DNA from: Gammaproteobacteria bacterium
GTDB lineage: Bacteria; Pseudomonadota; Gammaproteobacteria; UBA4575
Assembly (NCBI GenBank): GCA_965220875.1
Contig: OZ244849.1
Coordinates: forward strand, 1,562,979 to 1,626,978
Direction: 5' to 3'
DNA length: 64,000 bases
Notes under the pieces: model-generated
What the model saw: the letters and a program-made list of their open reading frames with translations, nothing else
Database searches by the model: none
Told to the model about the DNA's origin: nothing
Made by a program: the position numbers and the translations under genes
Shown here: in pieces, positions 2,149-36,452 of the stretch
Position numbering within the stretch: the first letter of the stretch is position 1
Layout of the letters: each line of letters starts with the position of its first letter

Positions 2149-2395
2149 CCGGTCCTCTGTTGAATTAATTTTGTCCAGCCTGGCCAAACAGTTGGGCTGG
2201 CACCTGTGAGTAACGCTTTGTCCGGAAGAGGGCTTTGTTAAAATTTATTTGGGATCAGGCAGCAGATGTAGTTTTGTACTGGTTTCCGGTAGGGCTGCAA
2301 CGGAACTGATTCCACGTGTCTTCAATACTACATGTTCTCTGAGTACAGCTGTACACAGGACGTCCATAGAACTACATAATCGAGGAGTCCAAATC

Positions 2396-7920: not shown

Positions 7921-8314
7921 CCCGTGAGCGAACCGGAAGCATCGAGGTTCGGCTCCCTGCGAGTGCCAGCGGGCAGGGCAATGTCGTACAAAACCTGCTG
8001 ATGGTTTCCATTCAAGCCTGGGTCAAGCTTAGGAGGCATGACCCTAAATAAGGGGCAAACGATACTCGAGTTTCTTGTCTGGGTTTCGTTCAGTGCCCAC
8101 ATCCATTCAGTGTCGCGCACTTCTCCATCGGCATATTCTTGCGCATGCTGGCCTGCGCTACGGGCTCACAAAAAACCAATTCCGACAGGGTTCGCCGCGC
8201 AATGTGCGGGCCGTCTGATGCGTCGAAATCCGATCACGACCACGGTCTTGCAGAATGCAAAGTCGCAGCTCAACAGCGCGATCATTAGCGCGTCCCAAAT
8301 TGCCCGGGCACAGG

Positions 8315-9882: not shown

Positions 9883-10910
9883 TGACGGCTGCGCCTTGCC
9901 AGAATGAACATGAAAAAGGGTGCGCCGATCAGGGCGGTCAACAAACCGAGCGGAATTTCCGCTGGTGGAAGGAGACTGCGCGCCAGACCATCGAGCAGGG
10001 TCAGGAGAATGCCTCCCACCAAGGCCGAGGCCAGAATCAGCGGTGCATGGCGCGGTCCGAGCGTCCAGCGCACCAAGTGCGGCACGATCAAACCGACGAA
10101 GCCGATCGTGCCGCCCCAGGTGACTGCAAGCGCGACGAGGGCGGAGGCGAGTAAGGTCGCTATCACGACGAAGCGCTCGACAGGCAGGCCCATGTTGCGC
10201 GCCACGTCATCACCGAGGCCAAGGACATCGAGGCCGTGGGTAAGTCGACGCGCGAACACCAGCAAGAGCAGGCTCGCTAGAGCGATGTAGCCCAACTCGT
10301 GCCAGAAGGGAGTCTGGATGCCACCTAGCGTCCACGACAGCACGACCTGGAGGCTGATCGTCTCGTCGGCGAGCGCCAGCATCAGATAGCTGCGCAAGGC
10401 ACCGAGGAATGCTGCCATTGCGACGCCAGCCAAGAGCAGCCCGGCAGTGTCTTTCACCTGAGCGAGGCGAGCAAGCAGGAGGACGACAAGCGTTGCGCCG
10501 AAGGCGCCCAGAAACGACAGGACCGGCAGCAGCAGGAGCGGGGAGACCGTCTGGAAGAGCGAAAGCCCCGGGACCAGCAGCGCGAGGGTGGCGCCGAGCG
10601 CCGCGCCCGGCGCGGTGCCGATCAGGAAGGGATCGGCGAGCGGGTTGCGGAAAATGCCCTGGAAGATCGCCCCGGCTGCGCCGAGCAACCCGCCAACCAC
10701 AAAGGCGGTCAGCACACGCGGCAGCCGCCAGTCGAACAGCAGGCGGTCCAGAGGATGATCGCTCGCCCTCGCCGCCGGCCGGAGCAGGTCCAGCAACCGG
10801 CCGGGGCCGAGCAATTCCGGCCCGAGCATCATGGCAAACCCAATGGACAGGAGCACCGCGGCAATGAGAACTGCCAGCCAGCCGGTCGGGATGTCCAGGG
10901 TGCGCGTCAA
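9879..10910 (-). CDS. FecCD/BtuC-family ABC permease
   Basis: RLPR, QGIFRNPLADPFLIG, IGFVGLIVPH, GAPFF. Confidence 0.94.
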   Translation of the reverse strand: MTRTLDIPTGWLAVLIAAVLLSIGFAMMLGPELLGPGRLLDLLRPAARASDHPLDRLLFDWRLPRVLTAFVVGGLLGAAGAIFQGIFRNPLADPFLIGTAPGAALGATLALLVPGLSLFQTVSPLLLLPVLSFLGAFGATLVVLLLARLAQVKDTAGLLLAGVAMAAFLGALRSYLMLALADETISLQVVLSWTLGGIQTPFWHELGYIALASLLLLVFARRLTHGLDVLGLGDDVARNMGLPVERFVVIATLLASALVALAVTWGGTIGFVGLIVPHLVRWTLGPRHAPLILASALVGGILLTLLDGLARSLLPPAEIPLGLLTALIGAPFFMFILARRSRQ

Positions 10911-11842
10911 GTTCGGAGGGTCGCAACGAGATCGGGGTGTAGCGCGCGGGCGACGCTGTGCACGCCCTCGACGACGCGGGGTCCCGGGATCAGGACCTGG
11001 CCGCGTGGGATTGCATCGACCCGCCCAGCGGCGACCGCCGGGATGCTGTTCCAGTGGGGGCGCTCAAGAAGGGCGGCGACATCCGCCTCACTACCGGCGA
11101 CGAGGATGTGGTCGGGATCTGCTCGGAACACGGTTTCACCGCTCACCTGCGAGAGACTCGTGCGGTTGCCGAAGACGTTGAGTCCGCCGGCGTGGCGAAG
11201 GATGTTGTCGGTGTAGGTGCCGGGCCGGACCGAGTGGAAGCCGGCACGGCCGGCAGCGCCGGTCTCGAAGTAGACCCGCTTGGGCGGCCGCGACGCGAAA
11301 CGCTCGGCCAGTGCCGAGAGTTCGTCTTCGATCGTTTGGGTCAGCGCCTGCGCCTCCAGCTCGCTGCCGATCGCTCGCCCAACCAGAGCGATATTGGCCA
11401 GGATTCTCGCCAGCGTCGGATGATCGAGGACGAGCACCGGAACACCGGCCAGGTGCATCGGTCGCAACAACTGCGCGGCCGCGTGCCGCGAAGGTGTCAG
11501 GATGACGAGGTCGGTGCCGAGCCGAGCAATGATGTCCGGGCTGAAGCCGATGCGGTTGCCGATGCGCGGCCGGTCGAGGATCTCCGGCGGATAGCTTGTC
11601 AGGCCATCGATCGCGACGATACGCTCTGCGCCGCCAAGTGCAGCGACGATCTCGGTGTTGCTGGAGAACACCGGCACGATGCGGACCGGCCGGCGGGGGA
11701 TCCAGACGTGTCGGCCCAGCGCATCGGTAACCTCGCGTGGCCAGCCGTCATGCGACTCCGTCGCCACCGCGCAAGGCGACGTGACGGTTGCTGCGAGGGT
11801 CCCAGCCGTGGTCAGCAGGAAGCGGCGTCGAGTGAGATTCAT
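10907..11842 (-). CDS. Periplasmic binding protein, BtuF/FecB (helical backbone) family, Tat signal
   Basis: TRRRFL twin-arginine; VTDALGR, SNTEIVAALG, IPGPRVVEG. Confidence 0.9.
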   Translation of the reverse strand: MNLTRRRFLLTTAGTLAATVTSPCAVATESHDGWPREVTDALGRHVWIPRRPVRIVPVFSSNTEIVAALGGAERIVAIDGLTSYPPEILDRPRIGNRIGFSPDIIARLGTDLVILTPSRHAAAQLLRPMHLAGVPVLVLDHPTLARILANIALVGRAIGSELEAQALTQTIEDELSALAERFASRPPKRVYFETGAAGRAGFHSVRPGTYTDNILRHAGGLNVFGNRTSLSQVSGETVFRADPDHILVAGSEADVAALLERPHWNSIPAVAAGRVDAIPRGQVLIPGPRVVEGVHSVARALHPDLVATLRT

Positions 11843-11849
11843 CAGGACA

Positions 11850-14057
11850 TCAGAAACTGACCCTCATGCCGACGGAGAAGTGGCGGCCGCGCATCGAATT
11901 GCCTCGGCCACCGTTGGACCTAGTAGGTTGGGAGATGTAGGGTTGCTCGTCGATTGCGATGAAGATCGGATGCTCGTTCTTGTCGAACAAATTGTCGACC
12001 CCCCCGAACACGGTGACCCAGTCCGCCACATCGTAGTGGCCACGCAGATTGAAGACCCAGTAGTCATCCTTGCGGTGCACGTAGTTGGTCGCCAGCACGC
12101 CCCCGTACCTGCTTTCCACTGACAGATGTTCTTCAGTGTCGTAGTACATCGGCCCGTACAGCAAGCCGATCAGACTGGCGCCCCAACGATCGCGCCACTC
12201 ATAGCCGAGCCGCAAGGCAGCTTGGTATTCGTTCAAGCGCTGCACCTTGTCAGCATGGGTGCCGCTGTCCCGGCGGTCAATGCCGTCGGCCCGCATCTTG
12301 AAGTTCCAAGTACTGTCAACGCCGAGAGTGAGACGTTGGTCCTCCAGGCCAAGCCAGGGAGCGGCGTCGAATTCGGCCTGAACCTCGATGCCCTTGACTC
12401 GCGCATCACCGTCAGCGTTGACGAACTCCAAAATGTCGTCATTACGGCCAGGGCCGCGGGCATCAATCACCATGGTGTTGATCCGATCCTTGATCTTCTG
12501 ATCGAAGATGGCGGCGTCGAAGAAGAGGTTGCCGGGCGCATAGGTGAGGCCGATTTCGAATTGCTCGCTCTCCTCAGCATTGAGGCTGCTGTTACCTCGG
12601 AAAATTCTATCTGGCGTCAGCACCGGTGAGTACTCGCCCGCCAACTCTCGGCCCGTTGGCGAACGGAAGCCCGTGGCATAGCTTGCCCGGAGCTTGACGC
12701 CGGGCCGCACCGTGTAGGCAAGGCCGACGCCGTAGGTCGTATCATCAAAGGTGCGGTCAGTATCACCCGCCAGGGTGACGTTCGGCGTGTTCTGTAGGCT
12801 GATCTCGTTGCGCGTATATCGCAAGCCTGCCCGTGCGGTGAGCTGGCCATCGAAGAGGGACTGGGTGAGCTCGGCATAGCCTGCAGTCAACTCGTTGTCC
12901 TCGTTGTTGTCGTACGGGCTCGTCTGTGGGGTCGGTCCGCGTCCGCTGTCTAAGTAGACTCGGTGGCGCGTGCTGCGCAACTTGGATGTCTCACCATCGA
13001 AACCCAGAAGCAGGTCCGTGGTTTCGCTCAGCTTGAATTTCGGAGTCAACCGCACCCCGTATGCCGTGAGTTTCCGGCGATTGTTATCCTCATCGAACCC
13101 TGAGGCTTCGGAGCCCCAGTGGAAGGAGTCGACGTCACGGAAGGCGTAAAAGTGGGCGTTCATGTCGATGCCTAAGTCGTCCAGTACACCGGCGTAGGTC
13201 AGGTCGACAGAGTTGTTCCAGCGGTCGCCTTCGTTGTCGTAGTCCCAGGAGGAGCCGCGAAACCCGACGTCATACACACCGTCAGTGCGTAAGGTGAGAT
13301 TCCACTGGTGGCCCGGCCCGGGGTTCCAGCTAAGGGAGGCAAGTGCGCCGCGCCGTTTCGACTCGGTATTGACCTGTTTCGAGCTACCCGAGCCGCCGTC
13401 GTAGTCGTCGGTGGTCATGCCGCTGGCCCCGATGTAGCCAGCGAGATGGTCGGAAATGTCGCCGCCATACTCTCCTGTCAACCGGCCAAAGCCGTAGGTG
13501 CCGCCTTCGATCAAGGCCGTGCCGCCTGCGACGCTCTGGCTGTCGCGTGTGATCAGGTTGATGACACCGCCCATCGCCTGGTTACCGAATGCAACCGAGG
13601 CGGGACCGCGAATAATCTCGATACGCTCAAGCTGGTCCGGCGAGAGCTTGGACAGGTTCGCCGTGCCGGCCCGGCGACCGTTCAGCAGCACCAGCACTTG
13701 GCCCCGGAAATCGCGGCCCTGGCCGTCGCTGCGTGCGCCCCGCATGGTGATCGAAGTTTGGCCCGGGGTCCACTCACTGAAAAAAGCGACGGCGCGTTCA
13801 CGCAGCAGATCAGTAACCGAGTGATCGCGTGATTCACGCACTTGCTCTGCGTCGATCACCTGAACTGTGCTGGCAATCTTGCTGAGCGGCTCAGGGAGGC
13901 CAACTCCGGTGACGACGATTTCGTCGAGGGTGATGAATGGACTGTCGGTTGCCGGTGATTCCGCCCAAGCGGACATCGGGTTCATCAGTGCTGCCATCAG
14001 TAAGGCGACCGGCACGACGGACAACTTGTCGCGACATGTACCGTAAATCGTTTTCAT
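11850..14057 (-). CDS. TonB-dependent receptor (metal-chelate/corrinoid type)
   Basis: TonB box LDEIVVTG, IEIIRGPAS plug motif, NLFDK, C-terminal GMRVSF. Confidence 0.93.
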   Translation of the reverse strand: MKTIYGTCRDKLSVVPVALLMAALMNPMSAWAESPATDSPFITLDEIVVTGVGLPEPLSKIASTVQVIDAEQVRESRDHSVTDLLRERAVAFFSEWTPGQTSITMRGARSDGQGRDFRGQVLVLLNGRRAGTANLSKLSPDQLERIEIIRGPASVAFGNQAMGGVINLITRDSQSVAGGTALIEGGTYGFGRLTGEYGGDISDHLAGYIGASGMTTDDYDGGSGSSKQVNTESKRRGALASLSWNPGPGHQWNLTLRTDGVYDVGFRGSSWDYDNEGDRWNNSVDLTYAGVLDDLGIDMNAHFYAFRDVDSFHWGSEASGFDEDNNRRKLTAYGVRLTPKFKLSETTDLLLGFDGETSKLRSTRHRVYLDSGRGPTPQTSPYDNNEDNELTAGYAELTQSLFDGQLTARAGLRYTRNEISLQNTPNVTLAGDTDRTFDDTTYGVGLAYTVRPGVKLRASYATGFRSPTGRELAGEYSPVLTPDRIFRGNSSLNAEESEQFEIGLTYAPGNLFFDAAIFDQKIKDRINTMVIDARGPGRNDDILEFVNADGDARVKGIEVQAEFDAAPWLGLEDQRLTLGVDSTWNFKMRADGIDRRDSGTHADKVQRLNEYQAALRLGYEWRDRWGASLIGLLYGPMYYDTEEHLSVESRYGGVLATNYVHRKDDYWVFNLRGHYDVADWVTVFGGVDNLFDKNEHPIFIAIDEQPYISQPTRSNGGRGNSMRGRHFSVGMRVSF

Positions 14058-23867: not shown

Positions 23868-24121
23868 GCTACGAGTGGCATGACATTTTGGGCAATCTCG
23901 GTGTGTCCTTCATCATCGGGACCTATATCCTGCTTCAGCTCGAGCGCATGGACAGTGCGAGCTACACTTATTCAATCCTGAATGCACTTGGAGCGTTCTT
24001 TGTCGTCATCTCGCTGATGTACAACTACAATCTCTCAGGAATCATTGTAGAGGGCTTCTGGGCGGGGATCAGTGTAATAGGGCTCATTCGGCAGTGGCGA
24101 TTGAGGCATCAGGCACCCTGA
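23864..24121 (+). CDS. Small three-helix membrane protein (CBU_0592-like), copy 2
   Basis: MSYEWHDILGNLGV..YILLQ..YSILNALGA..EGFW; ATGA coupling with copy 1, 85 aa. Confidence 0.8.
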   Translation: MSYEWHDILGNLGVSFIIGTYILLQLERMDSASYTYSILNALGAFFVVISLMYNYNLSGIIVEGFWAGISVIGLIRQWRLRHQAP

Positions 24122-24228
24122 CAGGCCTATTCAGGTAAAGAATGATGGGACTGATAGTGGTTATTTTGCGGGGATCAATAAAGGGGAATGAGTGAAATAA
24201 ACGGAAATGTTACAGGACCCTTGAAAAT

Positions 24229-24486
24229 CTAGGGGAGTGGTTGATTGAACTTTCTGTCGGGTCCTTTTTGTAGAGGCACAGTTTTTTTGTTAAATGAAGC
24301 TACAATAAAGGGAGCGGAAGCAGCGCAAAGTAACCATACTGCCAGCGGGACAGCAATCGTCCACAGTGTAACTACAGACAGAATGATTAAGGCTAAACCG
24401 CCAATCAAATTGGTGTACATGAATCCAACCGGACCTAGGAAAGCTGCAAGCAGAAATGCAGAAAGAGGTGATCTTACTCGCTTCAT
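24229..24486 (-). CDS. Small hypothetical membrane protein
   Basis: AFLLAAFLGPVGFMY plus further hydrophobic helices. Confidence 0.6.
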   Translation of the reverse strand: MKRVRSPLSAFLLAAFLGPVGFMYTNLIGGLALIILSVVTLWTIAVPLAVWLLCAASAPFIVASFNKKTVPLQKGPDRKFNQPLP

Positions 24487-24677
24487 CGCAATCTAGGCTA
24501 GCATGTTTGGAACCAGTTTGAAATTAAGGTTTCTCTGGTTATGTGAACGAATTTGCATGTATTGTAACCGATGCCTCGAATCAGCAATTCCAGCACATTT
24601 TGAATGCAGTTACTTTCAGGCATTAATCAAGAATCAAGGTGGTGAGAGATTAAATCAATATCTTGCCTGAACGGGCA

Positions 24678-24704
24678 AAACTTTTTTTAAATCCATGGGT
24701 CTGA
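24678..24704 (+). promoter_or_regulatory. Possible RpoE/AlgU-type promoter for msrPQ
   Basis: AAACTT-N16-TCTGA, one mismatch from GAACTT-N16/17-TCTGA. Confidence 0.45.
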
Positions 24705-24878
24705 AAGTTGCGGAGTCACCATTTGGGTTGTTTGTTGCAGTCATGGTTATTCTGGCCTAGCTAATTGCCGGATTGGCTAATCAAAGCGCTTGATTGTCAA
24801 TGAAAATAAGGAAAATTAATGTTAGATTTAATTTCGAGGCCCCAAGTCCAGGTTACCTGAACAATTCGTTTCCATTAG

Positions 24879-25835
24879 ATGTTAATTAAAGTTGTCAAGA
24901 AGAGCGATGTCAATGAACATCATGTCACTGATGAATCGCTATACCTGAACCGAAGGCGATTTATGCAAGCATCTGTTTCAGGTGCTGCCATCGCAGCCGT
25001 ACCCTTCATGTCCTTATATCCGGCAGCAGGTGATGCGAAGCTGGAATTTAATAGCCCCAAGAAAAGCAAGTATTCTACTGATGAGGAGTTAACCTCGTTC
25101 GACGATATAACCCGATACAATAATTTCTACGAATTGGGTCTGAAAAAAGGTGACCCGAAACGTAATGCGCATCTCTTAAAAGTTACGCCCTGGGCTGTCA
25201 AAGTAGAAGGGGAGTGTGAAAAGCCAGGGGAGTACGGACTGGAAGATTTGATCTTGCCTTCGGAACATGAAGAGCGCATTTATCGCCTCCGTTGTGTTGA
25301 GGCCTGGTCCATGGTCATTCCGTGGGTTGGTGTTGAGCTGGGAGGGGTGTTGAAACGCTTTCATCCAACCTCAAAAGCGAAGTATGTGCAGTTTTTTACA
25401 ATATATGACCCGGATAATTTACCTGGTCAAAGGCGCCCTGTCCTGGAGTGGCCTTACCGAGAGGGATTGAGGATAGATGAAGCCATGCATCCACTGTGCA
25501 TTCTTGCCGTTGGCCTGTACGGGAAGGAACTGCCCAACCAAAATGGTGCACCGTTAAGGCTGGTAGTTCCGTGGAAATATGGCTTTAAAAGCATAAAGTC
25601 CATTGTACGAATACGGTTTACGGAGAAACAGCCTGCCACCAGCTGGAATCTTGCTGGACCAAGAGAATACGGTTTTTATTCCAACGTGAATCCTGAAGTG
25701 GATCATCCTAGATGGAGCCAGAAAAAAGAACGCAGGATAGGGGAGGTTTTTAAAAGAAATACACTGATGTTCAATGGTTATGCGGATCAGGTGGCAAGTT
25801 TATACGAAAGTATGGATCTCGCTAAGTATTACTGA
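24879..25835 (+). CDS. msrP: Protein-methionine-sulfoxide reductase catalytic subunit
   Basis: Tat motif [60 protein letters not shown]. Confidence 0.97.
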
Positions 25836-25896
25836 TCTGGCAAATCCCAGCGACGCCGTCCTGAACGAAGATTCAACCGATTCTTGTCTGAAATAA

Positions 25897-26484
25897 ATGG
25901 AATTAGGCAAGCCTACCGTATTTACAGTCTGTCTGATCCCTTTAGCATGTTATCTCTTTTGGTTTTTCACAGATTCACTGGGTGCAAACCCTATTGAGGC
26001 CCTTACAAGGAGGACAGGAGACTGGGCTTTGAGAATTTTGCTGGTTACCCTTGCAGTCTCTCCGATTAGACGGTTAACTGGCTGGTATTGGCTTGGCCGA
26101 TACAGAAGGATGCTAGGCTTGTTCGCATTTTTTTATGTGTCGGTACATCTGTCCTTGTATCTTTCGCTGGATAAGTTTTTTGACCTGTCAGAGATTTTTA
26201 GCGATGTAACGAAGAGGCCTTTTATTACAGCAGGATTTGCAGCATTTGTTTTATTACTGCCGCTGGCAGCCACATCGACGAATAAATTGGTGGAGATCCT
26301 ACAGCATCGCTGGGTCGTACTTCATCGCCTGGTCTATCTGGCCGCCATGCTTGCTGTGCTACATTTTTGGTGGATGGTCAAGATTGATACCCGCGAACCT
26401 GCAATCTATGCGTGTATTCTTGCAGGGTTGCTTGGATTCAGGCTGATTTACTATCTGAAAGCAAAGGTCAGGGAGTTCCGGTAA
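25897..26484 (+). CDS. msrQ: Protein-methionine-sulfoxide reductase heme-binding subunit
   Basis: LGANPIE, TGDWAL, RRMLGLFAFFY..H, KRPFITAG, LHRLVY. Confidence 0.95.
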   Translation: MELGKPTVFTVCLIPLACYLFWFFTDSLGANPIEALTRRTGDWALRILLVTLAVSPIRRLTGWYWLGRYRRMLGLFAFFYVSVHLSLYLSLDKFFDLSEIFSDVTKRPFITAGFAAFVLLLPLAATSTNKLVEILQHRWVVLHRLVYLAAMLAVLHFWWMVKIDTREPAIYACILAGLLGFRLIYYLKAKVREFR

Positions 26485-26615
26485 ATCTTGCTGTACTCAA
26501 TGACTGCTGCCAGTTGTGACACTCACACTCCAGCCCTTGTGGCACCCGCTTGACCATTGCAGTTTTGGTTACTTCACAGAACTCAAAAAATGAACTCTCG
26601 ACCGAGACTGTGACC

Positions 26616-27125
26616 TCAAAGTTTTACGGAAATTAGGTATCTTGAGTAGCTTTCACGAATGGACGTGTCTTCCTCGATAGACAATTCAAGAATTTTTTCA
26701 AGCACGTCTTCAAATTCACGCTGGATAATTTTAAAAAAGATTTTGCTGAGAGGATATTTTTCTGTTGGCAATGCAATCACTTTCTGCTGGAATCTGATCG
26801 GGAATATCATCTTCTCTTGGAAATAAATTTTCACAGCGAATACCCAGCGCCAGTCCCAGGAGTATACTGACAACGCGGCATTCCCTGCATAGATCTCAAA
26901 TGATTCACCCTCTTTCATCATTCCTTCACTGAATACAATGGCACGATAGGAATGGATGTTGTTAGAACTGATGAGATTGGCACCGACTATGTCAGGCTTT
27001 TCCGAATAAAAACTGAGTTTTTCGTACAGGGTAGGGTAAAATAGCTGCAGGAAGGCCAACAGTTTAGGATAGTGTGCGCTCTCAACATTCATTGTTGGAT
27101 AGAGTGTTGGTTCAAGATAGTTCAA
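26616..27125 (-). CDS. Hypothetical protein
   Basis: 169 aa ORF in AT-rich DNA; no family recognised; start uncertain. Confidence 0.55.
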   Translation of the reverse strand: MNYLEPTLYPTMNVESAHYPKLLAFLQLFYPTLYEKLSFYSEKPDIVGANLISSNNIHSYRAIVFSEGMMKEGESFEIYAGNAALSVYSWDWRWVFAVKIYFQEKMIFPIRFQQKVIALPTEKYPLSKIFFKIIQREFEDVLEKILELSIEEDTSIRESYSRYLISVKL

Positions 27126-27141
27126 TTACAAAGCTCGCCGT

Positions 27142-27218
27142 GCGCCCGTAGCTCAGCTGGATAGAGTACCTGGCTTCGAACCAGGTGGTCGGGAGTTCGA
27201 GTCTCTCCGGGCGCGCCA
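27142..27218 (+). tRNA. tRNA-Arg(TCG)
   Basis: GCGCCCGTAGCTCAGCTGGATAGAGTACCTGGCT-TCG-AACCAGGTGGTCGGGAGTTCGAGTCTCTCCGGGCGCGCCA, 77 nt, intact cloverleaf. Confidence 0.95.
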
Positions 27219-27362
27219 TCCCTGAACAGAAGATTTTACTTCATCTTTAAGTGTTAAGAGATAAGCATTTCGAATCAAATCTCTTGCCAGTGTATTGAGG
27301 GATTCAAGAGGCAAGCGCATGAATCGTCACCTCTTGTACCTGCACGGCCTGTCTTGCCCGGA

Positions 27363-28172
27363 TTACTTTCTCCGGATATTTGGCTTGACTCCGACAAGAT
27401 ACTGCCTGATTGCAATCCATGAATCCTGAATGGTTTTTTTCAGCACATCACCATCTTTTACCAGGAATTTCACCAGTAATCCGCAATGATTAGGCAGATA
27501 GGATACGCCACCGTAAACATCTTTATTCACCTGCATGCCGGATTGCAGCGACTCCAGCAAGTGCTGATGTTTGTCAGCACGGTTGATCACATAAATGGTA
27601 CCCATTCCAATATAGGAACGGTTATTGCCCAAAAAGTTTTTTGAATTTACCCGGTAAACATCTTTTGTAAGCAGCTCGGCATCTTCAGTATTAATCTGCA
27701 AGGAGCTGTTTAGCAGTTCGAACACGCGTCCATCGCCACTCAGAAAATGCAGCAGGAAAGAATCGGCGACTACTGCGGTACTGGTATCGTCTATGAATAC
27801 ATTGATTCTTGAACACAGTTTAGATTCCGGAAACAGAATCAATGGGTCAGATATGTACTCTGTATAGGAATGGCTCGTGACATTGATGTCGACTGAATGG
27901 TGCGCCATGCCATGAGGCATTCCGTGTACTATGGTTGAAGCCTGGGTAGTGACCTGGCTGTATGAACTCGAATGGGCGATAACATTTGTAGAGAGGGCTT
28001 CATCTTCATATATGCCTCCTGAAGCGGACTGGATATATATGTTTGCCATTCCGGGCGGGTCATTTTCAAAATACTGAGCCTTGCAAATATGGAAAGGATA
28101 GGCTGCATACTGATTCTTCAAGTATGTCTTTCCACCCGGACTGGTGGAAAACTCAAGTTGCAAGTTACCCAT
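27363..28172 (-). CDS. ureD: Urease accessory protein UreD/UreH
   Basis: SASGGIYEDE, QVTTQAST, DPLILFPES; last gene of the urease cluster. Confidence 0.88.
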   Translation of the reverse strand: MGNLQLEFSTSPGGKTYLKNQYAAYPFHICKAQYFENDPPGMANIYIQSASGGIYEDEALSTNVIAHSSSYSQVTTQASTIVHGMPHGMAHHSVDINVTSHSYTEYISDPLILFPESKLCSRINVFIDDTSTAVVADSFLLHFLSGDGRVFELLNSSLQINTEDAELLTKDVYRVNSKNFLGNNRSYIGMGTIYVINRADKHQHLLESLQSGMQVNKDVYGGVSYLPNHCGLLVKFLVKDGDVLKKTIQDSWIAIRQYLVGVKPNIRRK

Positions 28173-28185
28173 TCAGGCTGGTGTT

Positions 28186-28812
28186 CTAGTCGAATAGAAC
28201 GTTGTTGATGATATGGTTTGCAACCTCTTCTATGCCTTCACCCGTTTTACAATTTGTCAGCACAAGGTGTTTTCCATCCCTCACTTCAAGTCCCTCTTTC
28301 ACCATCAGGTCCACGTCTGCTCCTACAAACGGCGCCAAGTCGACTTTATTGATGACAAGCAAATCTGATTGGACGATACCGGGTCCTCTTTTGCGAGGAA
28401 TGTCGTCCCCTTCTGAAGTGTCTATCACAAACATCCAGTAATCTACGAGGTCCAGGGAAAAAGTGGATGCCAGGTTGTCTCCGCCGCTTTCTATCAGGAT
28501 AACATCCAGGTGTTCGAACTCCCTGTCCAGGTTTTCTGCAGCCTGCGAGTTCAAGGTAGGATCTTCACGGATAACTGTATGCGGACATGCGCCTGCTTCC
28601 ACTGCGACGATTCGTTCTGGGGCAAGCAATCCGGATCTTTGCAGGCGCTTTGCATCTTCTCGGGTGACCAGGTCATTCGTAATCACTGCAATTTCATTTC
28701 CCCGCTTGATAAACCGCGGGATCAGTTGCTCAATCAGGGCTGTCTTGCCCGACCCAACCGGGCCACCGATACCCACTCGTGCAGGGCCATTACGGGAATT
28801 CTGCTGGATCAT
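28186..28812 (-). CDS. ureG: Urease accessory GTPase UreG
   Basis: [26 protein letters not shown]; ATGA overlap with the ureC stop. Confidence 0.96.
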
Positions 28813-30521
28813 CGCAGCATGTAGCGTTGTGTCAGGGGAAGGTTCTTGGCCGGATCGCAAGTGGCAAGCTTGCCATTCACGAAGACTTCGAATGTTTCAG
28901 GGTTGACCGTAATTTTTGGACATGCACTGTTGTGCAGCATGTGGTTTTTATTGAGTTTGCGGGTGCCCTGTGCCGCCAGGTTCATTTTTTGAAGCTGCAG
29001 CTTTTCTCCGACTTTATCTTCAATTGCAGATTGATTGACGAAGTTTGCACTCAAGTGCTGCTTGGCATTACCGAATGCCCCCCATTGCGGTCTCAGGATC
29101 ATGGGTTCACAGGTCATCAACGATGCAGCACTATCACCCATTGCTGACCAGATGATAAAGCCGCCCTTGACTATCAGTTCGGGTTTGATTCCAAAAAATG
29201 CGGGCTTCCACAGCACGACATCGGCCAGTTTTCCTTTTTCTAGTGAGCCGATGTATGGGTCAATGCCGAATGTGCGCGCAGCATTGATTGTATATTTTGC
29301 GATATAGCGCTTGATCCTTTCATTGTCGCCGCGTTTTGTGGATTCTTCGGAAAGCCTTCCAAATTGATCCTTCATCTTGCTGGCAAGCTGCCAGGTTCGG
29401 CAGATGACTTCGTTGATTCTGCCCATGCCCTGGCTGTCTGAACCCAGCATGGAGATCGCCCCGAGGTCATGCAGTACGTCTTCTGCAGCGATGGTTTGAG
29501 CGCGGATTCGGCTTTCAGCAAAAGCAACGTCTTCCGGTATTGCAGGGTTCAAATGATGGCATACCATGGTCATGTCAAGATGCTCATCGAATGTATTCAC
29601 GGTATATGGATTTGTCGGGTTGGTGGAGGAGGGCAGGCAATTGTATTCGCCGGCAACCCGTATTATGTCGGGCGCGTGTCCACCTCCCGCCCCCTCGGTG
29701 TGATACATGTGGATGGTACGACCGTTGATCGCAGCCAGTGTATTTTCCAGAAAGCCACTCTCGTTCAAGGTGTCTGTGTGCAATTGGACCTGGAAGTCAA
29801 GCTCATCTGCAACAGACAGGCAGGTATCGATTACTGCAGGCATTGCGCCCCAGTCTTCATGAATCTTCAGTCCCAAACATCCCCCCCGGAGCTGGTCTAT
29901 CAGAGATCTTGGCTTGGACGAGTTGCCGCGCCCCAGGAAACCAAAATTGATGGGCCAATGCTCTGAGGCCTGCAGCATCTTGCCTACGTTCCAGGCACCC
30001 CCACAATCTATTCCTACAGTGATAGGGCCCAGAGAGCCTCCAATCATGGTAGTGATGCCGGAGCTGACAGCATGTTCACACAGCTGCGCACTGTCGAAAT
30101 GCACGTGAACATCTATTCCACCGGGTGTTGCAATCAATCCCTCTGCATCCCGCACAGTTGTCGCTGCACCACAGATAAGGTTTGAGTCAACCTTATCCAT
30201 GGTGGCCGGGTTGCCTGCTTTTCCTATTCCTGCAACCCGGCCTGCCTTGATTCCAATATCTGCTTTGACAATTCCCAGGACCGGGTCTATGACCAGCGCA
30301 TTACAGATCAGCATGTCCAGAGAACCTGCAGCACTGTCGTAGCCGGGTGTCAGACCCAGTCCATCACGCAGTGTCTTGCCTCCGCCATGCAAGCACTCGT
30401 CGCCAGGCACGGCATAATCGTGTTCAACCTCTGCCAAAAGTGAAGTGTCTCCAAGCCGGACAGCATCTCCCTTGGTCGGGCCATACATCAACGAATACTC
30501 TTTTCTTGAAATTTCAATCAT
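28809..30521 (-). CDS. ureC: Urease alpha subunit, divergent variant
   Basis: [58 protein letters not shown]. Confidence 0.95.
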
Positions 30522-30523
30522 TG

Positions 30524-31219
30524 TTACGCCCCTTTGAATCCGCGAACTTTCGCTTTTTGCAGTGCTTCCTTCTTATTGATATCACTGGATGTTGAACCAT
30601 CGGTTAAATGATTCAAGCCGTATACCTCACCGGTTCCTCCAAATTTGACCAGTCGTACTTCCTTGCTTTCGCCAGGTTCAAACCGCACTGCGGTTCCGGC
30701 TGGGACATCAAGGTGTCTTCCGAATGTTTCTTTCCGGTTGAATTCTAATTCGGAATTCACTTCAAAAAAGTGGAAGTGACTGCCGACCTGCACAGGCCGG
30801 TCTCCGGTGTTCAGCACCTTCAGCTTAACTGCCCGTTTTTTGGCATTTATCTTCACATTACCATCACCAGGGATGATTTCTCCAGGATAAGCGCTCTCTT
30901 TGATCTTCGTTTTCCCTGGACGAATGGGTTCATGTACTGTGACGAGCTTGGTGCCATCGGGAAACGTTGCTTCCACCTGCAGCATGCTCATCATCTCGCT
31001 GACGCCAGGCATGACATCATCCGTGCTGAGCAGTGTCGATCCGAAGCTGATCAGCTCTGCTACACTTCGGCCCTCCCGTGCTCCTTCCAAGATTTCGTCG
31101 GCAATTATGGCGGTGGCTTCAGGGTAATTTAACAAGAGCCCTTTCTTCCTCCTCTTCCTGGCCAATTCAGCAGCGGTATAGATGGTTAAACGTTCCAGTT
31201 CAGTGGGTGTCAGCAGCAT
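30524..31219 (-). CDS. ureA: Fused urease gamma/beta subunit
   Basis: Gamma part ([25 protein letters not shown]) in frame with beta part ([28 protein letters not shown]). Confidence 0.95.
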
Positions 31220-31248
31220 GGGAGTTCTCCAGAGATTTGAATCATGAG

Positions 31249-31929
31249 CTAGTTTATAAATAGTCTTGTTTCTGATTTCTCGTGTCTCATTGAAGCGATG
31301 TCTGAAACAGGCGTGAATCCATGGATCTCTTCAATCTCAGGCATAGGCCAAGTCAGGATTCTGGAAATTGATTTGCCCAATCTGGTCAGGGTCATCTGGA
31401 AATCAATATGGCTTATAAGCCCTAGACGCAAGGCTGCGCTGAGCGCAGAAGTACAAAAATTGTAAGCAGACAGCGTCAGCACTGGATTTTTGGGTAATCC
31501 TATGGAGTGCCAAAGCAGTCCCTGGCTGACAACCAGGTGTCCGTGTGCCTTGTTATCATGAATGAATGCCTGGTATTGCTTGGCGACAGGGTTGTCCAGC
31601 TTGACATAGGTAGACAGCAAAGCCGAGCCTAATCTTTTGGACCCTTCTCTCAGTTCGCTTGGCAAAGTCATGCATTCTACAAGGTTGTCTGCAGGGATGA
31701 CTGCTTGCAGGTCTTTCGCATGCTCGTAGCAATGGGCCAGCACCACACGTTCAAACGATCCCCATTTGTCGTGAAGCTGACTCTCGATAAAGTCTTCCAC
31801 TCCGCCTGATGAAGTAACCAGGTTGTCATTCTTGAGCATTTCCAGTCCCCAGGAAAAGGAAACAGAACCGGAAGGAAAAATGCTGTCCCCGTGCTGTAAC
31901 AGGGTGAAAACCTGGTCATCATTCATCAT
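31249..31929 (-). CDS. ureF: Urease accessory protein UreF
   Basis: [16 protein letters not shown]; C-terminal [11 protein letters not shown]. Confidence 0.93.
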
Positions 31930-32371
31930 GATCGATACGCTTGATCTTTCCTGTTGTGAAAAAATCTTTCAGCCTCTCAAGGTATATTTCCTCCGGGCTT
32001 TCAACCGCTATGCTGAGACACTCCTTTTCAAACTTGACTCGCCAGTGCATGTTTCCTGCAAAATAACCTATTTCGATCGCGCATGAAATGTCTCTGGGCT
32101 TGAGCCGCAGCCATTGCTCCTCGGACATTTTCACTACAACCGCACGATTACTTTCCAGCAGTAATACTGCACCGTTAGTCAACTTGGCCAGCCGTGAAAT
32201 AGAAACCGCACAGTCCGTACCCTGGTCTGTTTTGGCTCTGAAACGCCGCCGCAGCAGGTTTGAGCGGTCAAGTATTATGTATTCAACTTCATTTCGATGA
32301 GACAGGTCATGAAGCCTGCCCGACAAATTCGAGTCATGCACATGGCCAAGGATCTCTGTGATATGAATCAT
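31919..32371 (-). CDS. ureE: Urease accessory protein UreE
   Basis: RRRFRAKTDQG, GYFAGNMHW; no His-rich tail. Confidence 0.88.
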   Translation of the reverse strand: MIHITEILGHVHDSNLSGRLHDLSHRNEVEYIILDRSNLLRRRFRAKTDQGTDCAVSISRLAKLTNGAVLLLESNRAVVVKMSEEQWLRLKPRDISCAIEIGYFAGNMHWRVKFEKECLSIAVESPEEIYLERLKDFFTTGKIKRIDHDE

Positions 32372-32491
32372 GTGAGAATCGTATCTACTCTTTGATCAGT
32401 CGCAATGTGTGTCCGTGTGCATTCATCTGTTCGGGCAACGGACACGCTGTGTACTGCCATCCGGATGTATTGAGACAGGGCAGGAGGCAGG

Positions 32492-33799
32492 TCAGCAATC
32501 CATCGTGGTCTGCATTTCCCACTGGCTGAGATGGCTTGTGTAATCACGCCACTCCATCATTTTCAATTTAATATACGAATCCACGACTTCTGCACCGAGT
32601 TCGCTTCTTAATGCTCTATTCTTCTCAAGTAATCGCAGTGCGTCCAGCAGGGTAGACGGAAGCTTTTTCACATTTTTCAACTTGTCGCCCTCTTCATACA
32701 TGTTGATAAAGCTGGGTTTTCCGGGGTCCAGCTTGTTCTGGATTCCATCCAGCCCGGCCGCGATCACTGCAGCTTGTGCAAGGTAAGGGTTAGTCGCACC
32801 ATCCATCAGTCTCAGTTCGAACCGTCCATCCTCGGGAACCCGGATCATATGGGTGCGGTTGTTGCCTGAATAGGTCACTGCATTGGGCGACCAGGTGGCG
32901 CCTGAAGCAGTTCGCACTGCATCGATTCTTTTGTAACTGTTCACTGTCGGGTTGAGTATGGCACACATTGAAACGGCATGTTCCATGATGCCTCCAAGAA
33001 AATGGTAAGCCAGTTTTGACAGGCCAAGGTGATCGGACTTGTTTAGAAACAGGTTTTTTTCTCCGCTTTTGTTCCAAACAGATAGGTGTGTATGGCACCC
33101 ATTTCCCGTCAGGTTTGGAAATGGCTTGGGCATGAAGGTTGCCCGCATGCCATGATCCCCGGCAATGGTTTTTGTCATAAATTTAAAAAACACATGACGG
33201 TCAGCAGTGATCAATACGTCATTGTAATCCCAGTTCATTTCAAACTGGCCGTTGGCATCTTCGTGATCATTCTGGTACGGACCCCAGCCAAGTTTCAGCA
33301 TGCAGTCACAAATTTCCTTTACTACCGGGTAACGGCGCATCAGTGCCTGCTGGTCGTAGCAAGGCTTGGTTTGGGTGTCCAGCGGGTCCGATATGGAATT
33401 TCCATCCTGGTTGATTAAAAAGTATTCGCATTCGACACCCGTTTTGACCCGATAACCTTTCTTGTGGGCTTTGGCGATTTGTCTTTTGAGGGCAACTCTT
33501 GGAGAGGCTTCAACTTCTTTACCGTCCATCCACAGATCCGATGCCAGCCAGCCAACTTCAGGATTCCAGGGCAATTGAATCAGGCTGCCCGGATCCGGGA
33601 CTCCAAACATGTCTGAATCTGCAGGGGTCATGTCGAGCCATGCCGCGAATCCTGCAAACCCGGCGCCATCTTTTTGCATGCCTTTTATTGCATCGGCAGG
33701 AACCAGCTTTGCACGAAGCACTCCGAATAAATCTACAAAACTTATGAGAAAGTACTTGATCCCCTTGGTTTTTGCGATTTGAGCCAAATCTTTTGCCAT
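32492..33799 (-). CDS. glnT: GlnT-type glutamate-amine ligase, probably gamma-glutamylmethylamide synthetase (GmaS)
   Basis: 435 aa; KYFLISFVDLFG..RAKLVP, GAGFAGFAAWLDMTP, TKPCYDQQALMR, YQNDHEDANGQFEMNW, SGATWSPN, NNRTHMIR are signatures of the GlnT/GmaS clade rather than GlnA. Confidence 0.9.
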   Translation of the reverse strand: MAKDLAQIAKTKGIKYFLISFVDLFGVLRAKLVPADAIKGMQKDGAGFAGFAAWLDMTPADSDMFGVPDPGSLIQLPWNPEVGWLASDLWMDGKEVEASPRVALKRQIAKAHKKGYRVKTGVECEYFLINQDGNSISDPLDTQTKPCYDQQALMRRYPVVKEICDCMLKLGWGPYQNDHEDANGQFEMNWDYNDVLITADRHVFFKFMTKTIAGDHGMRATFMPKPFPNLTGNGCHTHLSVWNKSGEKNLFLNKSDHLGLSKLAYHFLGGIMEHAVSMCAILNPTVNSYKRIDAVRTASGATWSPNAVTYSGNNRTHMIRVPEDGRFELRLMDGATNPYLAQAAVIAAGLDGIQNKLDPGKPSFINMYEEGDKLKNVKKLPSTLLDALRLLEKNRALRSELGAEVVDSYIKLKMMEWRDYTSHLSQWEMQTTMDC

Positions 33800-34389
33800 G
33801 CTTACTCTCCAGTTGTTGATCCCGGTTACCCTGCCGTAGTAGAGCAGGTATTTTAATGCAAATCTTTTCGTTGCGAAGGGTCAGCTGAATGATTGCAAGC
33901 GGCCGGATTCAAAGGTCCCGGACAAAACATGACAAGGTCCTTCGGCCGCGGAGGATGTCACGATATGCAGGTAAAAATGCTTTCAAGTTACGGGCGTTAA
34001 GAACGGTGGACATCGGCAGATTATCATGCACAAAGGGATTAGGGAATTGGAATCAAAATCACCGGACAGGCTCCGTATCAGGGATGGAGTTCGCATTCTT
34101 GCACACACTGTACAAACGGAATTGGCGATCGAGGTCAATACCCGTCACACCGGGTTCACCCTCTGTATTGGTCTGGCATGGACATGTGGCAGAGGGAGCC
34201 TGCTATACTGCCTGAGTACACAATTCTGAATCGCAAAATATTGCCAGCGCTGCCATTCTTCCATTGCCTTTCATTGTGCGTTTGCAGAAGCGGGCGTTCG
34301 ACCATGCGGATGCGGGATGCGAATTCTCCAATTCAATTCCGGGTGAAGTACTCCGTGTGGTTTAAATTCTGCTGAATCCTGGTAGTTCC

Positions 34390-34833
34390 ATGCATATAGA
34401 CACCGCCACGATGGAAGACATTCCTCAATTATGTATCCTTCTTGAAGAGCTGTTTTCCCAGGAAGCGGAATTCAAACCCGATCCTGAAGTCCAAAGCGAG
34501 GGTTTGAAAAAGATTATTTCCAGCCCGGAGACAGGCCGTGTCATTGTAGCCCGTGAGGGAAATGACATCGTAGGCATGGCAAATCTTTTGTTTACCGTCT
34601 CGACTGCGCTGGGCAGTCCGGCTGCAATACTTGAAGACATGGTTGTTCTGCCGCAAGCCCGCCGCTCGGGTATCGGATCCAGGCTCATAGATTACTGTCT
34701 CAAGACGGCCGTGCAGAAAGGCTGCAGGCGTATTACCCTGCTTACGGACCATGACAATGCCGAAGCACACAGGTTCTACGAGCGGCATGGTTTTACACGT
34801 TCATCAATGGTTATTTTTCGGAAAAGTGTTTAG
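34390..34833 (+). CDS. GNAT-family N-acetyltransferase
   Basis: LEDMVVLPQARRSGIGSRLI acetyl-CoA motif; NAEAHRFYERHGF. Confidence 0.92.
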   Translation: MHIDTATMEDIPQLCILLEELFSQEAEFKPDPEVQSEGLKKIISSPETGRVIVAREGNDIVGMANLLFTVSTALGSPAAILEDMVVLPQARRSGIGSRLIDYCLKTAVQKGCRRITLLTDHDNAEAHRFYERHGFTRSSMVIFRKSV

Positions 34834-35204
34834 GGATTTATCTCATGCCGGCTTGGCAGCTGGACGGTGAACCTGCCTTCTGCACGACCGCTGAATTGCA
34901 CGGCAAAATCCGGATACCGCCCAGGCAAGCGAATGGAACCGCCCACCAGTAAGGCTTCAAGCCTTTTGAATACCACATCAGAATTGGTTTGTGGTTCATG
35001 ATGAAGTATGATCTATTTGCCGTTGGCCAAGTTGCGAGCATGCATGTGAGTTGCATGCACGACCCAAGTGATACTGTCCCTGTCATGGCTGCAAGGGATG
35101 CTTGACTGTGATGCTGAACTCGGGCCAGTACAGGCCAGAACGGACCCTGTGCGAAGTTGCCGGATGATATAGAACCTTCCTTCTAGTTAAACCAAATCTG
35201 ATTG

Positions 35205-36452
35205 ATGTTAAAACCATTTGAACTGTTCATTGGTTCCCGCTATTTGCGTGCAAAACGACGCAACCACTTTATTTCATTCATATCCTTGATTTCTTTGGTG
35301 GGAATAGCGCTCAGCATTGTTGTACTAATCACCGTCCTGTCCGTCATGAACGGCTTTCAGCATGAGGTCAAGCATAGGATTCTGGGCATGACATCCCATG
35401 CTTCGGCCTATGAACGGGATGGAATTCTCCGGGACTGGCAAGGCTTGCAAAAAAGGCTGAAGGATTTCTCGGAGGTCAAGGGTTCTGCACCCTTTGTCCA
35501 GGGCCAGAGCATGGCCGTGAAAGGAAAGAAGGTGAACGGTGTCCTGTTAAGCGGAATTGATCCGGAAATAGAAGGAAGGGTCTCGCGCCTAGGGGAGTAC
35601 ATGCTGGATGCCAATCTGAACGTGCTTCGGCCGGGGGAATTCGGAATTTTGCTTGGTGATGACCTGGCAGACCGCCTGGGTGTTCGCACAGGTGAAAAGA
35701 TTTCCGTTATCACTCCAGAGGCGACCGTGACACCAGCGGGCATTCTTCCCAGGCTCAGGCGTTTCACGGTAGTAGGCATCTATTCTGTAGGGATTCCTCA
35801 ATATGACCAAAACACTGCGGCGATCCACATCGAAGACGCTAAAAGGCTGTTCCAGCTGGGAGACTCGGTATCCGGACTGCGCCTGAAATTTGAAGACCTG
35901 TTTGATGCGCCTTCCCTGACCCGTGAACTTCGTACTTACCTGGGAAAGGAATACTGGGTTACCGACTGGTCACAATATAATCAGAATTTCTTCCGCGCCC
36001 TGAAAATAGAAAAAATCATGATGGCAATAATTCTGTCGTTACTGGTCCTGATTGCTGCCTTTAATATTGTGTCTGCTCTGGTCATGGTGGTGACTGAAAA
36101 GCAAAGCGACATCGCAATATTGCGCACACTCGGCGCATCGCCAAAAAGCATCATGGGCATTTTCGTGATCCAAGGTACCGTGATTGGCCTGGTTGGAACT
36201 GCATTGGGGGCTGTATTTGGAATTCTGCTTGCCTCTAACCTGGAGGACATCGTTGGCTGGATCGAGTCCATCTTCAATATGAAGTTCCTGACGGACGGGT
36301 TTTATCCCATTGACGATCTTCCATCCCACATCAATGCTTCAGATGTGGTGCTGGTATGTGCCATCGCGTTTGTCATGAGCGTTCTTGCCACGGTCTATCC
36401 TGCATGGAAGGCGTCCCGCACGCAGCCCGCTGAAGCATTGCGTTACGAGTAG
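35205..36452 (+). CDS. Lipoprotein-releasing ABC permease (LolC/E family)
   Basis: FISFIS, VLSVMNGF, AAFNIVS, IAILRTLGA, PAEALRYE; single copy. Confidence 0.95.
   Translation: MLKPFELFIGSRYLRAKRRNHFISFISLISLVGIALSIVVLITVLSVMNGFQHEVKHRILGMTSHASAYERDGILRDWQGLQKRLKDFSEVKGSAPFVQGQSMAVKGKKVNGVLLSGIDPEIEGRVSRLGEYMLDANLNVLRPGEFGILLGDDLADRLGVRTGEKISVITPEATVTPAGILPRLRRFTVVGIYSVGIPQYDQNTAAIHIEDAKRLFQLGDSVSGLRLKFEDLFDAPSLTRELRTYLGKEYWVTDWSQYNQNFFRALKIEKIMMAIILSLLVLIAAFNIVSALVMVVTEKQSDIAILRTLGASPKSIMGIFVIQGTVIGLVGTALGAVFGILLASNLEDIVGWIESIFNMKFLTDGFYPIDDLPSHINASDVVLVCAIAFVMSVLATVYPAWKASRTQPAEALRYE

Follow-up and report, generated by a model that had tools for sequence, protein, structure and literature searches.

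A distinct lineage of putative dinickel ureases with a remodelled substrate wall, encoded beside gmaS in a sponge-associated gammaproteobacterium

Urease is a textbook enzyme of famously narrow specificity, and the locus described here raises the question of what a urease with a differently built substrate wall acts on. The locus lies in a 64,000-nucleotide stretch of the genome of a Gammaproteobacteria bacterium (contig OZ244849.1, positions 1,562,979–1,626,978; hereafter the window, from whose first base all coordinates are counted). The stretch is also found in sponge and marine metagenome DNA, with no RNA data set listed as containing it, and the host is described as a sponge-associated gammaproteobacterium. 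The gene for the alpha (catalytic) subunit, ureC, is an open reading frame (ORF) at 28809–30521 on the minus strand that gives 570 amino acids on translation; its product scores 819.3 bits against TIGR01792 (cut-off 680), matches both Pfam Urease_alpha and Amidohydro_1, and is 56% identical to Klebsiella aerogenes UreC and 52–56% identical to canonical ureases. The UreC lineage of the window, with the gene order ureE-F-AB(fused)-C-G-D, is called Ure2 here. An initial annotation had proposed that concerted changes in this UreC reshape the pocket for a different substrate. Judged from its sequence and gene neighbourhood, the window UreC belongs, as catalytic subunit, to a complete and most likely active dinickel urease from a lineage of its own; we hold, with moderate confidence, that Ure2 is a working urease that acts mainly on urea and may tolerate N-substituted ureas more widely.

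Residue equivalences come from aligning the window UreC, by HMMER, with that of K. aerogenes (1ejw_C) and with jack bean urease; all positions given for ureC are on the minus strand. The dinickel ligands His139 and His141 of the HxH motif (30099–30107, aligned to 1ejw_C His134 and His136), Lys219, His248, His274, and Asp362 correspond to K. aerogenes His134, His136, Lys217, His246, His272, and Asp360. Lys219, in GLKIHEDWG (29865–29867), is the residue carbamylated in canonical ureases and is presumably carbamylated here as well. His221, Asp223, Gly279, Cys321-His322, and Arg338 are also intact, and K. aerogenes His219, Asp221, flap Cys319-His320, and Arg336 are the corresponding catalytic and substrate residues, in a numbering that agrees with the alignment. 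Cys321 and His322, the equivalents of K. aerogenes Cys319 and His320, belong to the mobile-flap motif DMTMVCHH (residues 316–323; 29553–29576). The alignment bears out the initial annotation in that the nickel ligands and the Cys-His-His flap are intact. Since the residues for nickel binding, carbonyl polarising, flap closing, and protonation of the leaving nitrogen are all kept, the chemistry should be that of urease: to go by this conservation, a bridging hydroxide would attack a carbonyl bound through O to Ni1 and through N to Ni2, yielding ammonia and carbamate.

The partner subunits of UreC and the UreD, UreE, UreF, and UreG maturation proteins, a full accessory set, are encoded in the same row on the minus strand. 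The row comprises ureE (31919–32371; NF009752, 174.7 bits, cut-off 162; Pfam UreE_N), whose product has no His-rich tail; ureF (31249–31929; PF01730, 105 bits), which overlaps ureE by 11 nt; ureAB for a fused gamma–beta subunit (30524–31219; NF009671, 353.8 bits, cut-off 243); ureG (28186–28812; TIGR00101, 242.4 bits, cut-off 204.2); and ureD (27363–28172; PF01774, 85.8 bits). Urease_gamma and Urease_beta domains are both found in the ureAB product, consistent with the name of NF009671, "bifunctional urease subunit gamma/beta". The likely start of ureG is the ATG at 28812, in an ATGA overlap with the ureC stop (sequence read ...CGATGATCC). UreA of Helicobacter pylori is likewise a gamma–beta fusion, and NF010592 and NF010591 score high, yet below threshold, for the window UreAB; the H. 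pylori alpha subunit differs in having the long active-site loop (65 vs 62 residues), as do its gene order and context.

The fold points in the same direction. An AlphaFold2 model of UreC, built from a 36-sequence alignment, has a mean predicted local distance difference test score (pLDDT) of 87.7 and a predicted template modelling score (pTM) of 0.92, and superposes on 39 solved urease chains with template modelling (TM) scores of 0.95–0.96 and root mean square deviations of 2.0–2.2 Å. In the model, the urease fold (an N-terminal domain and a TIM-barrel amidohydrolase domain) is kept. Model confidence is lowest in the active-site loops, with a mean pLDDT of 66 at residues 161–170 and 71 at 271–280, and less than 50 at 278–280.

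Three segments around the metal centre differ from canonical ureases. The active-site loop of residues 161–177 (17 residues; 29991–30041) falls three residues short of its counterpart in each of the 31 solved urease sequences that a 63-residue stretch matched; in these, query residues 2–63 span 65 chain residues, or 2–62 span 64. The initial annotation was right about this shortening, whereas the range that it assigned, 29991–30047, ends too late: the loop ends at 30041, and the rest encodes Met159 and Ile160. DSQGMGR (residues 362–368), which it had placed exactly at 29418–29438, contains the nickel ligand Asp362 and has Gly365 in place of K. aerogenes Ala363. Residues 143–147, next to the Ni2 ligands, read DSAQL (30081–30095) for canonical ICPQQ and include lineage-fixed differences. 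The canonical wall round the Ni2-bound nitrogen (GTxATTCTPG with Ala167, and DSQAMGR with Ala363) is therefore absent from the window UreC. HMMER places Gly170 beneath K. aerogenes Ala167 and Asp172 beneath Thr169, and the alignment used for the fixed differences described below agrees on Gly170; MAFFT, on smaller sets, puts the loop gaps elsewhere, so that the exact equivalence of Gly170 and Ala167 is not secure. In sum, canonical ureases (EC 3.5.1.5; K. aerogenes UreABC, Sporosarcina pasteurii, jack bean) and Ure2 share the fold, the ligands, the carbamylated Lys position, the catalytic residues, and UreD, UreE, UreF, and UreG, whereas the canonical enzymes have the long loop, Ala363, Ala167 (by HMMER), and ICP where Ure2 has the short loop, two glycines, Asp172, and DSA.

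The altered wall lies where canonical ureases hold the substrate. In the accessible text on the urea–fluoride complex of S. pasteurii urease, the Ala170 and Ala366 carbonyl oxygens stabilise the Ni2-bound nitrogen, those of Gly280 and Ala366 stabilise the distal urea nitrogen, and the C-beta of Ala366 makes a van der Waals contact to the water on Ni2 (PMC7433671). Ala170 and Ala366 are K. aerogenes 167 and 363. The initial annotation had the carbonyls of Ala167 and Ala363 bind urea NH2, which agrees with that account, and had both bind the distal nitrogen, which, in the same part of that source, only Ala366 does (PMC7433671). Mapped by alignment, the remodelled wall chiefly surrounds the nitrogen on Ni2 and not the distal one. 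Because the contacts are backbone carbonyls, Gly can still offer them, and these carbonyls may still be in place in Ure2; what has certainly changed, as read from the alignment, is side-chain bulk (loss of C-beta), loop length, and the gain of a new invariant Asp, Asp172. The wall beside the Ni2-bound nitrogen would thus differ by a loop shortened by three residues and bearing an invariant Asp, by Gly for both Ala residues, and by a rewritten segment after HxH.

These features belong to a lineage. In a set of 121 full-length sequences (the window protein and its 120 closest database clusters, 83–91% identical), the 17-residue loop is identical in 119 and DSQGMGR is present in 120. A scan of one genome per species gave at least 572 stretches encoding relatives, a number that is an upper bound for the lineage as some of the search words also occur in canonical ureases; 80 loci were kept (81 with the window), from alpha-, beta-, and gammaproteobacteria and from one record labelled Oceanobacillus. 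The gene order ureE-F-AB-C-G-D occurs in all kept loci where the contig permits. UreC identity across these loci is 74–92%, and that of UreD, UreE, and UreF falls to about 30–50%. A loop motif of twelve residues followed by Cys or Ser and two glycines is found in 80 of the 81 loci, as 80 distinct DNA versions that use all synonymous codons, and DSQGMGR in 81/81; retention of the loop through 80 DNA versions with free synonymous change indicates purifying selection. The end of the loop does vary in the 81 loci (Cys/Ser, Ala/Pro/Val/Glu, Trp/Phe). The flap Thr that had been singled out as a deviation is present in the window but is not fixed in the lineage, the position being Thr in 64 and Ile in 57 of the closest homologues, and Thr in 66 and Ile in 19 of a second set.

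Between 197 non-identical Ure2 sequences and 23 canonical UreC sequences, 32 positions are fixed and different. They include 163, 164, 167, 170–172, and 174 in the loop, 143–145 and 147 after HxH (DSA.L vs canonical ICP.Q), and 365 (Gly vs Ala), and further patches lie at 44–51, 124–125, 414/418, 465–469, and 479–480. That the altered residues, including the new Asp, are invariant down to 74% overall identity indicates that the exact wall matters. The proposal that the changes are concerted rather than drift is upheld by their fixation under purifying selection in the 197 sequences, by their place among the 32 fixed differences, and by the usual presence of a canonical co-urease (see below); the alignment against canonical UreC that it called for gave the same result, with the loop difference holding in 31/31 solved ureases. 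On this sequence evidence, strong purifying selection maintains the wall as a trait fixed throughout the lineage, and the wall did not arise in the window genome.

The phylogenetic position of Ure2 was examined in a quick IQ-TREE tree of 51 sequences (LG+G4; support by the Shimodaira–Hasegawa-like approximate likelihood ratio test, SH-aLRT), the root of which is not established. One clade unites all the long-loop ureases, eukaryote-type representatives among them (SH-aLRT 100), and Ure2, with its fused gamma–beta subunit and order E-F-AB-C-G-D, forms a separate clade outside it (SH-aLRT 99). The sister of Ure2 is a group of paralogues (L102–L104; SH-aLRT 98), and remoter short-loop urease-like lineages lie further out. 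To describe the loop as "replaced" or rewritten, as was done at first, is therefore unwarranted: the short loop characterises a distinct branch with short-loop relatives outside the canonical clade, in a tree without an established root. The short loop and the Gly of DSxGMGR occur together throughout, and Ure2 alone adds an intact HEDWG and Cys-His-His flap. Within the Ure2 clade, where L006 and L003 are nearest to the window UreC, branches are short and the classes are intermixed (alpha-, beta-, and gammaproteobacterial rows, and a single row labelled Bacillota), a pattern that points to horizontal transfer. In the window, the G+C content is 0.44–0.51 across msrPQ, the ure cluster, gmaS, and a GNAT gene (24001–36000), vs 0.52–0.57 on either side, as would be expected of transferred DNA. 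Among representatives clustered at 50% identity, Ure2 is merged with canonical ureases (best match 58%), and a search at that level describes diversity and is no census of the lineage.

Four full-length short-loop urease-like paralogues found in carrier genomes, L102 (G026:C84), L103 (G026:C25), L104 (G034:C7), and L112 (G010:C1), with representatives P0133–P0151, keep the nickel ligands and resemble Ure2 in the short loop and the Gly of DSxGMGR. Unlike Ure2, which keeps both, they have lost the His and/or Cys of the flap (AHR, SHL, CHS, CHM) as well as the HEDWG Trp (HEDYG, HEDFG, HEDIG); probably they are nickel amidohydrolases for substrates other than urea. L102 and a Ure2 gene share a contig and are only 8 kb apart.

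What the neighbours of Ure2 say about its substrate was assessed by a tblastn census of the 56 loci whose upstream sequence extends for 8 kb or more. Urt-type permeases are encoded in 31/56, and representative UrtB, UrtC, and UrtD score above the NCBIfam cut-offs. In 7/56, a DmgH/MefH-like arginase-fold pair stands directly upstream of ureE, together with HypA and a UreG/HypB-like gene; one pair member (L054:7047–8102) scores 558 bits against metformin hydrolase subunit B (8ryi_C). Characterised DmgH converts dimethylguanidine to dimethylamine and urea, and its authors, in the accessible part of their report, point to the downstream urease of Aminobacter niigataensis as the next step (PMC11399263). 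The Ure2 loci with the pair are alike to that system as described there, and Aminobacter plasmids carry a Ure2-type ureC (77% identity); the window itself has neither the DmgH pair nor an importer. By this analogy, the upstream DmgH pair is the strongest contextual argument for plain urea as the Ure2 substrate, and the proposal of a pocket for a different substrate goes beyond the evidence in the face of it. On A. niigataensis plasmid p2, allantoinase and allantoate amidohydrolase genes are followed by the Ure2 cluster and then by HupE/UreJ.

The row upstream of ureE at L054 (2420–8102; likewise at L041 and L043) consists of a NitT/TauT importer, a gene like glutamine synthetase (GS), an ATP-binding cassette (ABC) ATPase gene, a UreG/HypB-like gene, hypA, and the arginase-fold pair. 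The GS-like product of such loci (475 amino acids, 33% identical to GmaS) may capture the amine released by DmgH.

The genomes that carry Ure2 were considered next to the loci. Ure2 occurs in 7 of 200 Alphaproteobacteria in an even random sample (one of the seven partial), and named carriers include the methylotrophs Methyloversatilis, Methylophaga, Methylobacterium, Aminobacter, Paracoccus, and Ancylobacter. Ure2 is the sole UreC homologue in 9 of 35 carrier genomes reached via the loci, although most of these genomes are metagenome-assembled and of completeness not established. Urea carboxylase above the cut-off is absent from 8 of these 9 genomes. Taken together, the full catalytic and maturation machinery, the Urt-type permeases, DmgH upstream, the ureide genes, and the Ure2-only carriers are what we weigh in favour of urea.

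A number of observations weigh against urea as the main substrate and in favour of a shifted or widened one. The remodelled wall is invariant and is located exactly where the Ni2-bound urea nitrogen is held according to the accessible part of PMC7433671. The other 26 of the 35 carrier genomes have a further UreC homologue (50–67% identity); of the 22 extra copies that were read, 17 show the canonical loop with DSQAMGR, one combines a long loop and DGQAMGR, and four are other short-loop paralogues, while two further regions yielded no ORF under the filter applied. G002, the closest relative with a genome, has both Ure2 and a canonical urease. The substrate-binding protein (SBP) encoded beside Ure2 scores under the UrtA cut-off (319 vs 493 bits), and no UrtA above the cut-off was found in the nine Ure2-only genomes (best 465 vs 493 bits), a result that by itself points neither way. 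Ure2 occurs joined to importers of at least four families, namely Urt-like, NitT/TauT (L022, L025), Bmp/PnrA (L039), and divergent Liv-type (L003). The aliphatic amidase AmiE (25/56 loci) and AmiR (AmiR_N and ANTAR domains; 23/56) are parts of an acetamide operon, which amounts to wiring by an amide sensor. The window operon is headed by GmaS, a poor catcher of urease ammonia, and GmaS is associated with Ure2 across genomes (7/7 Ure2 carriers vs 7/44 canonical-only urease carriers among the 200 Alphaproteobacteria). Finally, no biochemical study of the Ure2 lineage was found in the literature searched, which left subscription journals mostly outside.

The best-surviving alternative, to which we give a chance of roughly one in four, is that Ure2 enzymes are alkylurea amidohydrolases acting on N-methylurea, perhaps dimethylurea, and releasing methylamine to GmaS. 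Additional room beside the Ni2-bound nitrogen, at the site of the shorter loop and both Ala-to-Gly changes, would admit an N-methyl group; methylamine would be freed directly or via N-methylcarbamate, together with ammonia and CO2, and GmaS would pass it into the N-methylglutamate pathway. Among the grounds for this alternative is gmaS (32492–33799, minus strand; TIGR03105, 671 bits, cut-off 469.6), which encodes gamma-glutamylmethylamide synthetase (glutamate–methylamine ligase) and is the first gene of the putative operon. Its product scores 622 bits against the solved Rhodovulum GmaS (7cql), keeps the methylamine-site residues named in PMC7948447 (Lys31, Phe48-Ala49, Asp178, Glu187, and the Trp in SGATWSPN), and has Ala in place of the GS ammonium ligand Asp50'. 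The Michaelis constant (Km) of the solved GmaS is 27 µM for methylamine vs 8.7 mM for NH4Cl, a preference of about 320-fold by Km (PMC7948447, Table 1). With a millimolar Km for ammonium, the catching of urease ammonia is an unlikely job for GmaS. A glutamine synthetase catching urease ammonia was accordingly considered and ruled out as the main explanation, the gene being a GmaS ortholog.

The spacer between gmaS and ureE is 120 nt long with no terminator-like site inside, and co-transcription of gmaS with the ure genes in the window is plausible from this arrangement; the ure operon would then be transcribed together with gmaS in the window host. A sigma-70-like promoter match lies upstream of gmaS (33850–33877, minus strand; 9/12 consensus positions), with four promoter-like sites observed near gmaS vs 9.8 expected in shuffles, so that the consensus match is weak evidence. 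An 8-bp inverted repeat in the spacer (32409–32445, minus strand; GTGTCCGT ... ACGGACAC, with a 21-nt loop and no T-run behind) is a possible regulatory hairpin.

The link between gmaS and ure2 recurs in relatives, although sparsely. A GNAT-gmaS-ure2 block is common to the window and L006 (UreC 92%, GmaS 89% identical) despite different outer flanks; at L066, the third such locus and an alphaproteobacterial one, gmaS is found 3 kb past ureD. In G002, as in the window, gmaS stands directly upstream of ureE, and the divergent GNAT acetyltransferase gene (34390–34833, plus strand, in the window; Pfam Acetyltransf_1) is the only other common neighbour. GmaS at E ≤ 1e-120 (49–89% identity) is encoded in 26 of 36 carrier genomes, and a GmaS of 44–47% identity in 8 of the other 10; in the 200-genome sample, it is also present in 17 of 149 genomes without urease. 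Fisher's test gives p = 3e-5 for 7/7 vs 7/44, a value that ignores relatedness, lifestyle, and genome size, and the co-occurrence of Ure2 and GmaS is a real but confounded association. That many of the named carriers are methylotrophs fits the use of methylamine.

Against alkylureas, gmaS is adjacent in just 3/56 loci, and the loci linked to DmgH make plain urea. In G001, the gmaS ortholog (84% identical) is inside a usual mgsABC-gmaS-mgd cluster 40 kb from ure2, and the adjacency in the window may therefore reflect rearrangement or shared nitrogen control. In the literature searched, with the limit given above, no methylurea-specific enzyme of the urease family was found, nor was a natural methylurea pool found documented.

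The G001 cluster (G001:C1:1685789–1709569; L099 = G001:C1:1688000–1707000) is flanked by a hybrid histidine kinase gene and three UrtA-like genes, two of them interrupted by an in-frame stop; the role of UrtA-like proteins at this site may lie outside urea. In G002, all that is left is a diverged cluster of mgs/mgd type that has a GS-like gene of its own (L100, G002:C1:1703000–1718000): a GS-like protein of 491 amino acids and GATase, GXGXG, Glu_synthase, and DAO genes beside an Amt-family transporter, only 51–53% identical to the regular mgs/mgd genes of G001.

A narrow form of the urea reading, in which Ure2 is an isozyme without any change of specificity and differs in regulation, affinity, pH range, or inhibitor sensitivity, is rather improbable. 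The affected contacts are backbone carbonyls that Gly can still supply, and second urease clusters under other regulation exist: in Brucella, to go by the available portion of the source, ure2 is a second cluster beside ure1 that encodes no active urease and carries transporter genes (PMC2868824), a likeness to Ure2 that is one of description. Absolute conservation of the altered residues, including the new Asp, down to 74% identity speaks against an isozyme of this kind.

Still less probable is that the substrate is formamide, acetamide, or some other small carbonyl-amide brought in by an amide importer, with the group that replaces the second nitrogen of urea seated in the remodelled sub-pocket. 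The commonest Ure2 context is an AmiC/AmiR-controlled operon with a Urt-like ABC importer, and the archetype, in Methylophaga (L057) and in the alphaproteobacterial L066, runs amiC-amiR, SBP-urtBCDE, optional amiE, and then ureEF(AB)CGD. Operons of the type amiC-amiR-ABC-amiE(-cbbQ-norD) exist without urease and are interpreted as acetamide operons in the accessible part of PMC13209695, and the low UrtA score of the SBP fits an amide importer. However, AmiE stands immediately upstream of ureE in the loci that have it, so that an amidase is already provided; the importer and AmiC/AmiR, like the amidase and the DmgH pair, are absent from the window; and a methyl group or hydrogen cannot coordinate Ni2, which would leave the conserved bidentate machinery idle. 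None of the listed neighbours is present in 11/56 loci.

A CbbQ-like ATPase is encoded in 23/56 loci and a protein with a von Willebrand factor A (VWA) domain in 20/56, and in amiE-ure2 islands the CbbQ/NorQ-type AAA ATPase occurs with its NorD-like VWA partner (L014 13368–14267, L055 3978–6269). Such a pair is suggested in the available text of a 2026 paper to activate the amidase (PMC13209695); it could equally serve Ure2 instead.

That the cluster is an inactive or decaying relic is highly improbable, as all seven genes have open frames with coupled starts, purifying selection acts at the codon level, and nothing specific speaks in its favour.

Other features of the window touch the urease system less closely. 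Downstream of ureD, P0008 is an ORF call only (26616–27125, minus strand; 169 amino acids, TTG start) that matches no Pfam or NCBIfam family and has no counterpart in the 80 related loci; it was set aside as a part of the urease system and may not be a gene. A "marine subtype" ammonium transporter with an N-terminal extension of about 120 residues is encoded at 2249–3868 (TIGR03644, 519.7 bits, cut-off 514), and a separate high-G+C stretch (0.61–0.66; 8001–14000) carries a TonB-dependent receptor and a heme/B12-type ABC importer.

ureC serves as a marker for ureolysis. The Ure2 lineage is annotated everywhere as plain urease by annotation pipelines, and its UreAB and UreE are covered by NCBIfam models; what is added here is its placement in the tree, the list of fixed differences, the correction as to which urea nitrogen the wall holds, the context census, the identity of the upstream gene as gmaS, and the genome-wide association of Ure2 with GmaS. 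Diamidophosphate derives from the fertiliser additive N-(n-butyl)thiophosphoric triamide (NBPT). In the accessible part of PMC7433671, the inhibitor diamidophosphate is bound through the carbonyls of Ala170 and Ala366 too, and the inhibitor sensitivity of Ure2 may differ for that reason. If Ure2 enzymes did act on alkylureas, they would provide a new entry of methylated urea or guanidine nitrogen and carbon into methylotrophy, and part of the metagenomic "ureC" counts would not be urea-specific. Near-exclusive co-occurrence with GmaS, and the presence of a putative gmaS-ure2 operon in a bacterium associated with sponges, tie the lineage to the turnover of methylated nitrogen compounds. Its wide distribution and differently built substrate wall make the lineage a natural experiment in the determinants of urease specificity.

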